From the IMG/VR virus record IMGVR_UViG_2671180906_000008: a stretch of 4,318 bases of DNA. One strand, 5' to 3'. A program made the position numbers and the translations under genes. This document shows, piece after piece, positions 1 to 4,318 of the stretch (positions are counted from its first letter, which is position 1; each line of letters opens with the position of its first letter). This DNA comes from a virus. Taxonomy: Duplodnaviria > Heunggongvirae > Uroviricota > Caudoviricetes. Below the pieces are notes generated by a model. The model was not told where the DNA came from. It saw only the letters and a list, made by a program, of their open reading frames with translations, and searched no databases.

Positions 1-46
1 TGTTCTGAGGTGAGCATATCACCTCTGTTCAGGTGGCCAAATTCAG

Positions 47-69
47 TGTGCCACTTCACTATAGGGACC
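47..69 (+). promoter_or_regulatory. T7-group single-subunit RNA polymerase promoter-like sequence, predicted +1 at G64
   Basis: tgtgccacttCACTATAGGGAcc: positions 56-67 match the T7 promoter -8..+4 core TCACTATAGGGA 12/12; upstream -17..-9 differs from T7. Same orientation as all downstream genes. Only occurrence in the window. Confidence 0.4.
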
Positions 70-120
70 ATATCTCGCCTCTGACCTCCTGAGAGACGGC
101 AAGCGAGAAACCGTGGTCCA
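64..120 (+). other. Predicted 5' leader stem-loop at the putative transcript start
   Basis: GGACCA (65-70) pairs with TGGTCC (114-119); TCTCGC (73-78) pairs with GCGAGA (103-108); CTCT (79-82) pairs with AGAG (92-95). Nested helices begin right after the predicted +1. Confidence 0.3.
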
Positions 121-383
121 CGCTAGCAAGCTAGCCACCAGCCTAAGGCAAGACAGCCTCTGGTCAGCCTGTGTGTTCTTTGGTCTCGTGACTTAAGTCT
201 ATCACCACACACGCTCGGACATGCTGTCGAACCTTCATCTCTATGGTCATCGCAGACCACTAACCCCAATTACCTCAAGTCATTCTGTTTGCGTCCTGTT
301 GCCTGCTGGTCTCCCTTTACGTGGGGGCTTGAGTAGGTCAGTGGGGTGCGACTTCAGGGTGCAAACAAAAGGAGTACACGTAA

Positions 384-1130
384 ATGTCCCAACAAGAAAT
401 CAGCATCATTAACCTCGACCAGCTTGTGTCCATGACCTCAGTTGAAATTGCTGAGCTGACAGGAAAAGAACATAAACACGTTTTACGAGATATTCGTAAT
501 ATGGTCGAAGAGCTTAACGGGGCCAAAACTGAGCACTGCTCAACTTTGAGCAGCGAGCTTAACGGGTCCAAATTTGGGCTCGTTGGCGAGGAAGTATACA
601 AGGACGCGAAAGGTGAGAGCCGAACAATGTATCGTCTCGACCGTAAGCATACTTTCATTCTGGTCGCTGGCTATTCCGTTCACCTCCGCGCCAAGTGTTA
701 CGACCATATTCAGACGTTAGAGCGTCGAGTCCTTCAACTGGAAGACCAGAAGAAGCGAGCAGCCATTCAGTCCGCTAACCGCCGAGGCGTGACTTGGGGC
801 GACTACTGCAAAACCTATGGTCTGCCCGCTCAGAAGCTAATGACCGCACTTCTCCAGCATCGTGGCCTCTTTCGTAAGAACCCAATCAGTAACGAGTGGT
901 CTGTAAATCCGAAGTATTCCGACTGCTTTCGTATCATTAAGCCGTCAGACCAGAAGTTCTCAGCAGGTGGGTATAACTTCCGGTTCAACGCTAAGGGGCT
1001 GGAGGTCTTCGGTAAGCCTGAGATGGTTGACAAGATGCGAGGCATCCTTATTGCATTCACTGGCACCGACCAGCAGAAGCAAGAGCACCTCCTGAAGCTG
1101 GCACAATCCGGTAAGGTGGAGGGAATCTAA
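384..1130 (+). CDS. Rha-family phage regulatory protein (pRha/ORF6N-like N-terminal domain), 248 aa
   Basis: ATG 384 preceded by AAGGAG (369-374) at 9-nt spacing. N-terminal ...TSVEIAELTGKEHKHVLRDIRNM... then ...MYRLDRKHTFILVAGYSVHLRAKCYDHI... matches the Rha/antirepressor N-domain pattern as I recall it. Long uninterrupted ORF. Family call not searched. Confidence 0.65.
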   Translation: MSQQEISIINLDQLVSMTSVEIAELTGKEHKHVLRDIRNMVEELNGAKTEHCSTLSSELNGSKFGLVGEEVYKDAKGESRTMYRLDRKHTFILVAGYSVHLRAKCYDHIQTLERRVLQLEDQKKRAAIQSANRRGVTWGDYCKTYGLPAQKLMTALLQHRGLFRKNPISNEWSVNPKYSDCFRIIKPSDQKFSAGGYNFRFNAKGLEVFGKPEMVDKMRGILIAFTGTDQQKQEHLLKLAQSGKVEGI

Positions 1131-1131
1131 G

Positions 1132-1308
1132 ATGATGATTGACCCGCGCACACCTGAGGGGCGCATGACTCTCCGTTACCGTGGCTACCGGACTGAAGTC
1201 CTCCTCAGAGAGCTTGGTCTAGACCCGGAAGATGAGACCCGCCAGCACCAATCCCGAGACGAGCTAATAGCCCAACTGGTCGCTATGAAACTGCCGCTTA
1301 ACCGTTAG
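1132..1308 (+). CDS. Hypothetical small protein, 58 aa, translationally coupled to upstream gene; not in supplied ORF track
   Basis: ATG 1132 lies 1 nt after the TAA (1128-1130) of the upstream ORF. GGAGG at 1118-1122 gives 9-nt spacing. Reads MMIDPRTPEGRMTLRYRGYRTEVLLRELGLDPEDETRQHQSRDELIAQLVAMKLPLNR to TAG 1306-1308. Codon usage like neighbours. Confidence 0.5.
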   Translation: MMIDPRTPEGRMTLRYRGYRTEVLLRELGLDPEDETRQHQSRDELIAQLVAMKLPLNR

Positions 1309-1427: not shown

Positions 1428-1978
1428 ATGATGTTCAACAACAACNNNNNNNNNNNNNNNNNNNNNNNNNNNNNNNNNNNNNNNNNNNNNNNNNNNNNNN
1501 NNNNNNNNNNNNNNNNNNNNNNNNNNNNNNNNNNNNNNNNNNNNNNNNNNNNNNNNNNNNNNNNNNNTCCTATCCGTTGTCGCTCGCTATCAAGACCCTC
1601 ATTCCGGGCTACCTGTCAGGCTTACCGTCCACCAGCCGCGAGGCGATGGAGTTACTGGAAGCTCTGGCTGAAGCTGGCGTGACCATTGGTAACTTCTTCA
1701 GTAATGACCTGATGACCGCCTACCAACGCCGCCAGATGAACAAACGAGCTGAAGCTGAGCGTATCGCTAAAGAGCTAGCGTCTCAGAAAGAGCGTACCCG
1801 CGAAATGTTCATGACCGAAGACGAATGGCAAAAAGAGCTACAGCGCCGCGAACAGGTCAAAGCTGAACGCCGGACCTATGGTGAAAACCTCCGCAGCGCT
1901 ACTCATTCCGCTGGTCGCTCACGTGCCGCTATCGTCGCTGACCTTGAGTCAGGCGGTAACTGGATGGACAGCTTGTAA
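1428..1978 (+). CDS. Hypothetical protein with charged, coiled-coil-like C-terminal half; interrupted by assembly gap, reading frame across gap unknown
   Basis: GAGGAG (1414-1419) 8 nt before ATG 1428 (MMFNNN...). After the gap an open frame runs to TAA 1976-1978 (…AEAERIAKELASQKERTREMFMTEDEWQKELQRREQVKAERR…). The 1349 start in the ORF track has no ribosome-binding site and is probably an artefact of the gap. Confidence 0.5.
1446..1567. other. Assembly gap (122 N)
   Basis: Run of N characters. Length is not a multiple of 3, so it is probably a placeholder size. Confidence 0.99.
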
Positions 1979-3065: not shown

Positions 3066-3102
3066 GGTCAGACTTCCGAACTGGATGTCTGGCCTTTATT
3101 TT
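3066..3102 (+). terminator. Intrinsic (factor-independent) terminator downstream of the 329-aa ORF
   Basis: GGTCAGAC (3066-3073) pairs with GTCTGGCC (3087-3094) with one G.U pair; inner TCC/GGA pairs extend the stem; 5-nt loop gaact; followed by TTTATTTT (3095-3102). Starts 15 nt after the stop codon. Confidence 0.6.
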
Positions 3103-3146
3103 GTACTAGTAATCTAGTTTGTGAATACAGAAAGTAGGAGGGCCAA

Positions 3147-3221
3147 ATGGACCTACACAAAGTCTATCTCGTGGTCTTCCTGCTAAAGCTGGGACTGGTG
3201 GTCTGGCTATGGGCTATTAGA
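3147..3221 (+). CDS. Very short ORF (24 codons) behind a consensus ribosome-binding site; possibly a truncated gene start or leader peptide
   Basis: AGGAGG (3136-3141) 5 nt before ATG 3147. Reads MDLHKVYLVVFPAKAGTGGLAMGY then TAG 3219-3221. Too short to call a protein confidently. Confidence 0.2.
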
Positions 3222-3724
3222 CGATGAGTTTTGACTGAAAAATGTGAGACCTCATCTAATATAAAGAGCGAGCCAAAAGCCCCCATAGCCTGACCTGAGC
3301 CAGACCAAAAGGGCCGGGTAGTCAGACCGTGAGTTCTATTCCTTTAGAGGGAATATTACGTGCTTCAAGTCTTGACCTTCTATCTCTAAATGTGTGACTA
3401 TCACTACAACCAACTGGATTCACCTGTCTTTAAGAAACAATAGGTTAGCTGGTTGTCTTCGATTTGTCGTAGGCTCCCTTCGCCCGCTCCAATTTATCTT
3501 CACCTGATCAATCTGCCATTTTTGCTGTATCTGATTTTCTATATTATCTTAATTCAATCACTTCAGGCTTTTCGCAATCGCTGTAACACTTCCCCATTTT
3601 TTTGTAAATAAAAAGCGTTTACGCAATGCAATCCTTTTGTAACAACTCAGGTAAAATACCTTATTTTCAAGTTGTTGAATAAGTGGTTATCTACGCTTTT
3701 AACAAACGATTGATGGATTATTTT

Positions 3725-4276
3725 ATGAAAGGGAAATCTGCATTAACTCTTCTGCTCGCTGGTATATTTTCGTGCGGCACATGCCAGGCGACAGAGGCAG
3801 AAGTGACAAGCGAATCTGTATTTAACATTCTTAATTCCAGGGGGGCAGCAACAGATAAAAGTTATTTATCGTTAAATCCAGATAAGTATCCTAATTATCG
3901 TCTTCTGATTCACTCAGCCAAATTAAAAAATGAAATAAAGAGTCACTATACCAAAGACGAAACTCAAGGATTGCTAACATTAACAGAAAACACACGAAAG
4001 TTAACGTTGACGGAGAAACCCTGGGGAACGTTTATTCTTGCTTCTACTTTCGAAGATGACAAAACAGCGGCAGAAACCCACTATGATGCTGTCTGGCTGA
4101 GGGATAGTTTATGGGGCTATATGGCATTAGTATCAGACCAAGGAAATAGTGTAGCCGCAAAAAAGGTTCTGCTCACCCTGTGGGGTTATATGTCTACGCC
4201 CGACCAGATTAAGCGGATGCAGGACATCATTAGCAACCCAAAACGACTGGATGGAATTCTGATCCTACCCACGTAA
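3725..4276 (+). CDS. Secreted protein with N-terminal signal peptide and a GH15-like (glucoamylase/trehalase-type) WxRDS motif; ends at an in-frame TAA, possibly truncated or a pseudogene
   Basis: ATG 3725 gives MKGKSALTLLLAGIFSCGTCQA|TEAE, a classic n-h-c signal peptide. In-frame alternative starts at GTG 3683 and ATG 3713. AVWLRDSLWGYMAL at 4088-4129 resembles the GH15 WTRDS region. Visibly AT-richer with different codon usage than 384-3051. Frame stays open after the stop to the window end. Confidence 0.55.
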   Translation: MKGKSALTLLLAGIFSCGTCQATEAEVTSESVFNILNSRGAATDKSYLSLNPDKYPNYRLLIHSAKLKNEIKSHYTKDETQGLLTLTENTRKLTLTEKPWGTFILASTFEDDKTAAETHYDAVWLRDSLWGYMALVSDQGNSVAAKKVLLTLWGYMSTPDQIKRMQDIISNPKRLDGILILPT

Positions 4277-4318
4277 TATGGACACAGGCCTAAGCGAGGT
4301 TCTGGTTTTCAAATTGTT

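Follow-up and report, generated by a model that had tools for sequence, protein, structure and literature searches.

A putative T7-type promoter split by IS911 in a tRNA-Gly island with a predicted HK97-fold capsid gene

The locus and its promoter remnant

The window considered here is the whole 4,318-nucleotide (nt) stretch of the virus record IMGVR_UViG_2671180906_000008 (Caudoviricetes), a 4.3-kb contig with the insertion sequence IS911 at its left border and IS3 at its right. It holds the + strand gene cluster of a chromosomal island located at tRNA-Gly and, 5' of this cluster, the remnant of a T7-type phage promoter, P3 (Table 1). Two longer alleles of the island are referred to throughout: L044, from Shigella flexneri SFBU1023, and L001, in which the promoter is uninterrupted. 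Positions without an allele name are those of the window.

Table 1. Features of the window, in order of position
Feature	Position	Strand	Remarks
IS911 terminal 58 nt (orfA-side end)	1..58	-	minus-strand transposase, lying past the start of the window
P3 remnant	56..69	+	native bases 59-69 (-5 to +6); predicted +1 G64; recognition region -17 to -9 gone
CTA, 3-bp target-site duplication of IS911	59..61	.	promoter -5 to -3; from comparison of L044 with L001
Untranslated leader, 320 nt, promoter to first gene	64..383	+	no credible open reading frame, no Rfam family
Rha/Ant-like regulatory protein, 248 amino acids (aa)	384..1130	+	Pfam Phage_pRha 1.5e-18, weak KilAC; PHROG 10324 anti-repressor 2.6e-62
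58-aa open reading frame	1132..1308	+	no match in Pfam, PHROG or PADLOC
163-aa open reading frame, charged, directly 5' of the capsid gene	1428..1978	+	intact at L044 7426-7917; no significant family
HK97-fold major capsid protein, 329 aa	2062..3051	+	predicted structure
Intrinsic terminator, hairpin and U run, right after the capsid gene	3066..3103	+	-19.7 kcal/mol, z = -4.5, 0/200 shuffles as stable
26-aa hydrophobic micro-ORF, MDLHKVYLVVFLLKLGLVVWLWAIRR, 3' of the terminator	3147..3227	+	strong Shine-Dalgarno; kept with its ribosome-binding site in 5/7 islands compared
attR, 17-bp direct repeat of the tRNA-Gly 3' end, TCCCTTCGCCCGCTCCA	3475..3491	.	right island end; same 17-mer as the L001 pair

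The 12-nt core of T7-group promoters, TCACTATAGGGA (-8 to +4), is matched at 12 of 12 positions at 56-67 on the + strand. This placement makes G64 the +1 position and 47-69 the -17 to +6 region, which reads TGTGCCACTTCACTATAGGGACC. The core occurs once in the window, with no second copy there even in looser searches, and it sits 5' of all four + strand open reading frames (ORFs) and points in their direction. None of 200 dinucleotide-preserving shuffles contains it, and with two mismatches allowed 0.34 matches would be expected in the window. A preliminary description of this DNA had placed the core and its +1 at these positions, read it as co-directional with the downstream cluster and judged a chance match unlikely, and all of this stands. 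A chance 12-mer can practically be dismissed: three of the 12 bases (TCA) are indeed coincidental, being derived from IS911, but besides the result of the shuffles the remaining nine continue a 23-nt consensus promoter in the uninterrupted alleles.

Insertion of IS911 within the promoter

Positions 1-58 are 100% identical to the annotated IS911 end in Shigella phage Sf6. The last three IS911 bases, TCA (56-58), supply -8 to -6 of the core and happen to equal the native bases. The apparent 12-nt core is thus a composite of 3 nt of IS911 and 9 native nt, because IS911 inserted inside the promoter. In L044 the full element occupies 4804-6056 between the two promoter halves, with CTA on both sides and the transposase on the minus strand. 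Its junctions read ...ACTATCACTA/TGAAGTGG...CCACTTCA/CTATAGGGACC, the slashes marking the ends of the element, and the left flank is also written ACTAAACTATCACTA and GACTAAACTATCACTA; the uninterrupted L001 reads ...ACTATCACTATAGGGACC, also written GACTAAACTATCACTATAGGGACC. Terminal inverted repeats starting TGAAGTGG and the 3-bp target duplication identify the element as IS911, of the IS3 family. Both E. coli ECMA0423 (L039) and S. flexneri SFBU1023 match the window at 100% identity. This IS911 junction is absent from the RefSeq complete E. coli genomes and present in the GTDB genome set, and E. coli genomes without IS911 match the window from position 53/56 onward only. On these sequence comparisons, 56-69 is the downstream stump of a T7-type promoter of K1F/EcoDS1 specificity, split by IS911.

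The -17 to -9 bases of the window, TGTGCCACT, are unlike those of T7, T3, SP6 and K11, and agree with the native allele at one of nine positions. In promoters of T7 RNA polymerase, structural and promoter-variant studies define -17 to -5 as the binding domain, within which -12 to -8 sets specificity. The window copy has the initiation core with its +1 G, and its -17 to -9 region does not match the consensus of the cognate phage. On a weight matrix made from 11 EcoDS1 promoters it scores -4.0 bits (upstream half -24.5, core +20.4), against 30.5-37.1 bits for the EcoDS1 training sites and a maximum of 10.5 bits over about 100,000 host positions. Since the binding and specificity region has been replaced and the score is this low, the window copy of P3, its recognition half lost, is most probably inactive, and the transcript start at G64 that the preliminary description had predicted is not expected here.

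The same description had reported, correctly, that the upstream region differs from the four familiar promoters, but the distinct polymerase specificity that it read from this difference falls away, as the region is IS911 DNA. An intact and functional promoter whose unusual -17 to -9 bases define a new specificity would fit the perfect core and its proper position 5' of the operon. It is nevertheless very improbable, given that these bases are an IS911 terminus lying in what is known as the binding domain, and that the score on the cognate matrix is negative. The 14-mer at the insertion junction, CACTTCACTATAGG, also occurs in viral contigs as scattered singletons only, in contigs of all sizes and with no recurrent phage use among them, whereas the native 17-mer recurs among ~40-kb viral contigs.

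At the left IS911 junction (L044 4789-4811) the promoter is retained from -17 to -2, as ACTAAACTATCACTAT/GAAGTGG, and this hybrid scores 16.1 bits. A phage polymerase might still bind this half, which points into IS911, antisense to the transposase.

The intact promoter and its phage counterpart

The intact P3 allele, ACTAAACTATCACTATAGGGAC, lies at L001 5996-6018 (ACTAAACTATCACTATAGGGACC) with its +1 at 6013, and scores 35.9 bits. It is identical to the annotated promoters phi10 (-17 to +4) and phi6.5 (-17 to +5) of EcoDS1, a Kayfunavirus of the K1F group, and shares its -8 to +4 core with T7 phi10. By BLAST, 209 phage records share a ~29-nt match to this allele, and the ones listed (K1F, EcoDS1, PE3-1, ST31, Citrobacter SH3 and others) are phages of the K1F type. 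The match falls under features annotated "promoter" in EcoDS1 and PE3-1. Judged by this identity, native P3 has the already known K1F/EcoDS1 specificity. The island allele differs from Kayfunavirus late promoters in lying on a bacterial chromosome that lacks a cognate polymerase gene, and the window copy differs further in having lost -17 to -9.

Further promoter copies had been anticipated in the preliminary description, and they were sought in complete genomes because the window is bounded by insertion sequences. None lies within the window, but the complete-genome alleles of the island carry P3 together with a tandem pair. In L001 this pair is about 560 nt 5' of P3, with +1 positions at 5424 and 5454 and spacings of 30 and 559 nt; the site at 5437 scores 32.0 bits and the one at 5407 is of a different type. 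The uninterrupted allele thus combines a full 23-nt match to a phage group with several copies in one element. The suggestion that the window core belongs to a real T7-group promoter element is borne out by these alleles, in which ACTAAACTATCACTATAGGGAC and the tandem pair are identical to annotated Kayfunavirus promoters.

Island anatomy and gene cluster

The island is 6.4 kb long and lies at tRNA-Gly between 17-bp att repeats (L001 2976-2992 and 9350-9366, 6374 bp apart). Its left half in L001 consists of tRNA-Gly, an integrase gene (543 aa), a gene for a DUF4145 protein, the tandem pair of phage-type promoters and a noncoding stretch of about 540 nt leading to P3. After P3 come the 320-nt leader, Rha/Ant, the 58-aa, 163-aa and 329-aa ORFs, the hairpin terminator, the 26-aa micro-ORF and attR. 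The integrase, of 536-543 aa, is the largest island ORF. A single-subunit RNA polymerase gene, which the preliminary description had proposed to look for, is not found in the island, where no ORF fits ~880 aa, and no sigma-70-like site occurs on the + strand of the island. Because the island has no RNA polymerase gene, the polymerase of a helper phage is implied.

Within the noncoding stretch that separates P3 from the tandem promoters, ~370 nt (L001 5505-5873) are 55-81% conserved, above the Rha gene, and have no Rfam match; they are a candidate for an origin, a packaging site or an RNA. Across the window and the intact locus, tRNA is the only Rfam match. The T7-type pause site ATCTGTT is absent from the island. 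An EcoDS1 junction 8-mer occurs once, within the integrase gene, and is taken as chance.

Rha/Ant is the most variable module across related islands. The leader that precedes it has an RNA fold no more stable than shuffles (z = -0.76). The 163-aa protein is a candidate scaffold, by its position next to the capsid gene only. Its frame is broken in the window, and chimeric ORFs are predicted there, because a run of 122 N (1446-1567) replaces 63 bases; the real bases are at L044 7444-7506. The last gene of the cluster encodes, by structure prediction, an HK97-fold capsid protein. Its sequence has no match in Pfam, PHROG, PADLOC or PDB sequences, and the fold comes from the model made with the deeper alignment, the shallow-alignment model (pLDDT 41) being unusable. 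In viral contigs, matches to the capsid gene are on 18-73 kb contigs, not on island-sized contigs or ~40-kb T7-like genomes; they are taken for provirus calls from isolate genomes and are not informative. The product of the 26-aa micro-ORF could be a small membrane peptide or toxin.

Related islands

Islands in Buttiauxella, Leclercia, Enterobacter and Citrobacter, and a second copy in Shigella, carry two to four promoters, which occupy two shared positions. The flanking noncoding DNA and the Rha module diverge among islands, while the 163-aa and capsid genes are 80-90% identical; for the 163-aa ORF the DNA identity is also given as 83-94%. With a synonymous divergence (dS) of 0.3-1.3 and a ratio of nonsynonymous to synonymous divergence (dN/dS) of 0.05-0.20, the capsid gene is, by these alignments, under strong purifying selection, along with the adjacent scaffold-like gene. 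Conservation of the integrase and of intact att sites in six genera or more suggests active mobility. A distant island (L050) has the same architecture, with an integrase of 429 aa and a capsid protein 33% identical. It carries a promoter-like 20-mer repeat, TAAACCCCGACTATAGAGAG, in three copies (5751-5806 and 9463-9482), one of them after the capsid gene, and this repeat is matched by three viral contigs only.

These comparisons bear on the possibility that the island is a decaying T7-like prophage, its promoters and capsid gene being functionless leftovers. Such an origin would account for the T7-like promoters, and the succession of a scaffold-like gene, the capsid gene and a terminator resembles that of T7 genes 9 and 10 and T-phi. 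It is quite improbable, however, because many genera share this compact architecture of 6-7 kb, as does the relative with the 33%-identical capsid, and because the capsid gene has the low dN/dS given above and the promoters remain consensus-perfect while their flanks diverge. DNA similarity to phage is moreover limited to the promoters, and the capsid protein has no sequence-detectable phage family.

Many of the tandem pairs mix two specificities, the Kayfunavirus type and either a TATACCCTCACTATAGGGA type or a T7-ish type. Examples are L043 (5471-5519 and 6023-6072), L047, L041 and L044 (4200-4250). Among podophages, Cronobacter GW1, Shigella SFP21B and Enterobacter phages are examples whose genomes each match the TATACCCTCACTATAGGGA type at several places. 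In the genome of the window itself the second promoter type is ATAATACACCTCACTATAGAGGA, with partial matches only, to T7 and Ebrios. The promoter sequences suggest that each island may answer to two groups of T7-like phages.

The chromosome of S. flexneri SFBU1023 holds two related islands (L042 and L044) at different sites, with capsid proteins 92% and 100% identical to that of the window.

The DUF4145 protein of L001 (4751-5410), encoded between the integrase and the tandem promoters, is PD-T7-4 (E 1e-102). PD-T7-4 has been renamed RAZR, a HEPN RNase of the abortive-infection kind that is triggered by phage portal rings, its activators being the portal proteins of T3 and T7 (PMC13017515). 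An earlier source notes that PD-T7-4 frequently overlaps an integrase gene (PMC9519451). The available portions of PMC13017515 and PMC9519451 do not mention a context of T7-like promoters or a capsid gene. RAZR thus travels on T7-promoter islands alongside an HK97 capsid gene, in sister islands outside the window. The cargo slot in the window's own genome (L044 3588-4007) is occupied by a different ORF of 139 aa with a sub-threshold match to HEPN_RiboL-PSP (E 0.019), and going by this match it may be another HEPN-type defence gene.

Proposed function

The identity of the promoter, its disruption by IS911, the island anatomy, the capsid fold and the dependence of the intact allele on a phage polymerase for its expression are, taken jointly, held with good confidence. 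The cluster would remain silent until the cell is infected by a T7-like phage whose specificity matches, and the RNA polymerase of the phage itself would then transcribe it from the tandem promoters and P3. The island is most plausibly a satellite of T7-like phages or a defence against them. Its products would build or remodel capsids for spread of the island, interfere with the phage, or both. In the window's genome phage-driven expression would come from the tandem promoters, which are intact 1.8 kb upstream (L044 4200-4250), and the promoter half retained at the left end of IS911 would perhaps contribute as well.

A more specific reading makes these islands of 6-7 kb true satellites whose helpers are virulent T7-like (Autographiviridae) phages, with the helper polymerase firing copies of the helper's late promoters. 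Promoter pairs of two specificities would then let more phages act as helper, the capsid protein would serve to build or resize capsids for the island's own spread, and RAZR-like cargo would contribute defence. This reading is plausible but put forward tentatively. Several points weigh against it or against the model as a whole. One capsid protein alone makes no transducing particle, and no replication or packaging gene is recognised in the island with Pfam or PHROG. A helper-like pac or terminal-repeat sequence is absent, the whole island matching phage DNA by BLAST in its promoters only. Contigs in circular or episomal form were not found, and the Logan contigs of island size that were seen are chromosomal. 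The EcoDS1 promoters used for comparison are depositor annotations rather than mapped starts. In the window's genome read-through of the 1.25-kb IS911 is needed and is assumed, which is plausible for processive phage polymerases. No experimentally shown satellite of T7-like coliphages was found in the literature searched.

The islands might alternatively serve defence only, with the promoters sensing infection and the phage polymerase inducing a decoy or poisoning capsid protein together with Rha/Ant, so that phage assembly is spoiled and the island is never packaged. This is rather unlikely: the conserved integrase and att sites point to active mobility, and the capsid and scaffold-like genes are under strong purifying selection. 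Defence and satellite life styles are in any case not mutually exclusive.

If either function holds, the island would be either a satellite of virulent T7-like phages or a defence element directed at them, and no characterised E. coli satellite with such a helper was found. K1F-type phages are candidates for phage therapy, so the islands are of relevance there. The class is now readily testable, given perfect Kayfunavirus promoters, a gene for an HK97-fold capsid protein under purifying selection, and the anti-T7 RNase RAZR adjoining the promoters in sister islands. The lesson of the window itself is modest, namely a broken promoter copy whose odd upstream bases are an insertion-sequence artefact.

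Comparison with known systems

Chen and Schneider reportedly described, in 2006 and by prediction from sequence, tRNA-associated islands of 4-13 kb that have an integrase, two to three T7-like promoters within a few hundred bases of each other and no polymerase gene. They are said to have suggested that these islands depend on T7-like phages; the hosts reportedly included Shigella and E. coli, with a few downstream genes that are phage-related and without assigned function. The island studied here belongs to this class of tandem T7-like-promoter islands, taking the class features as reported. It falls in the 4-13 kb range and has an integrase and att repeats at a tRNA gene; its promoters lie within a few hundred bases of each other, four to five co-directional ORFs follow where two to five genes are expected, and it has no polymerase gene. 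The kind of element is thus already known, and the window copy is a truncated promoter of known specificity. The island of the window differs from the others in having one promoter split by IS911. The exact identity with Kayfunavirus promoters, the predicted HK97 capsid fold, the RAZR cargo and the promoter pairs of two specificities are results of the present analysis. No experimental follow-up of the class was found in the literature searched.

The cf-PICIs (for example EcCI2) encode a full head and packaging module, with portal, protease, small terminase and connectors, and their helpers are temperate phages. The island, in contrast, has a predicted capsid protein and a possible scaffold only, and lacks a head-morphogenesis module of its own in which the capsid protein is joined by portal, protease and terminase small subunit. 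Its helper would be virulent and T7-like, with control exerted through copies of the promoters of that phage.

The island resembles P4, the satellite of P2, and satellites of virulent phages (PLE, PICMI) in being small and in having genes that would be switched on by the transcription apparatus of the helper. PICMI is a family whose members, small and reduced in gene content, are satellites of virulent phages. P4 relies on helper activator proteins that act on the host polymerase. The island would instead recruit the helper's own polymerase directly.

T7 offers two further parallels. Its terminator T-phi, after gene 10, holds the same position as the island terminator after the capsid gene. 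The primary origin (phi1.1A/B) resembles the island in that noncoding DNA comes after a close pair of phage promoters. At this origin transcription by T7 polymerase primes replication, and Chung and Hinkle are said to have reported in 1990 that plasmids with a T7 origin were replicated as concatemers and packaged. Unlike the T7 origin, the tandem pair of the island is not followed by a marked AT-rich stretch, and no clear origin-like one was seen there. An origin function for the tandem pair is speculation at this stage.

Other observations at the borders

The tRNA-Gly gene beside the island in L044 (1735-1810) has indels, and ARAGORN calls it tRNA-???; this is either an assembly error or a degenerate gene. 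Beyond attR, the host gene ygeQ (3683-4259), which lies in the ETT2 region and is annotated as glycoside-hydrolase-family, is truncated by IS3, and the IS3 end at 4260-4318 closes the contig.
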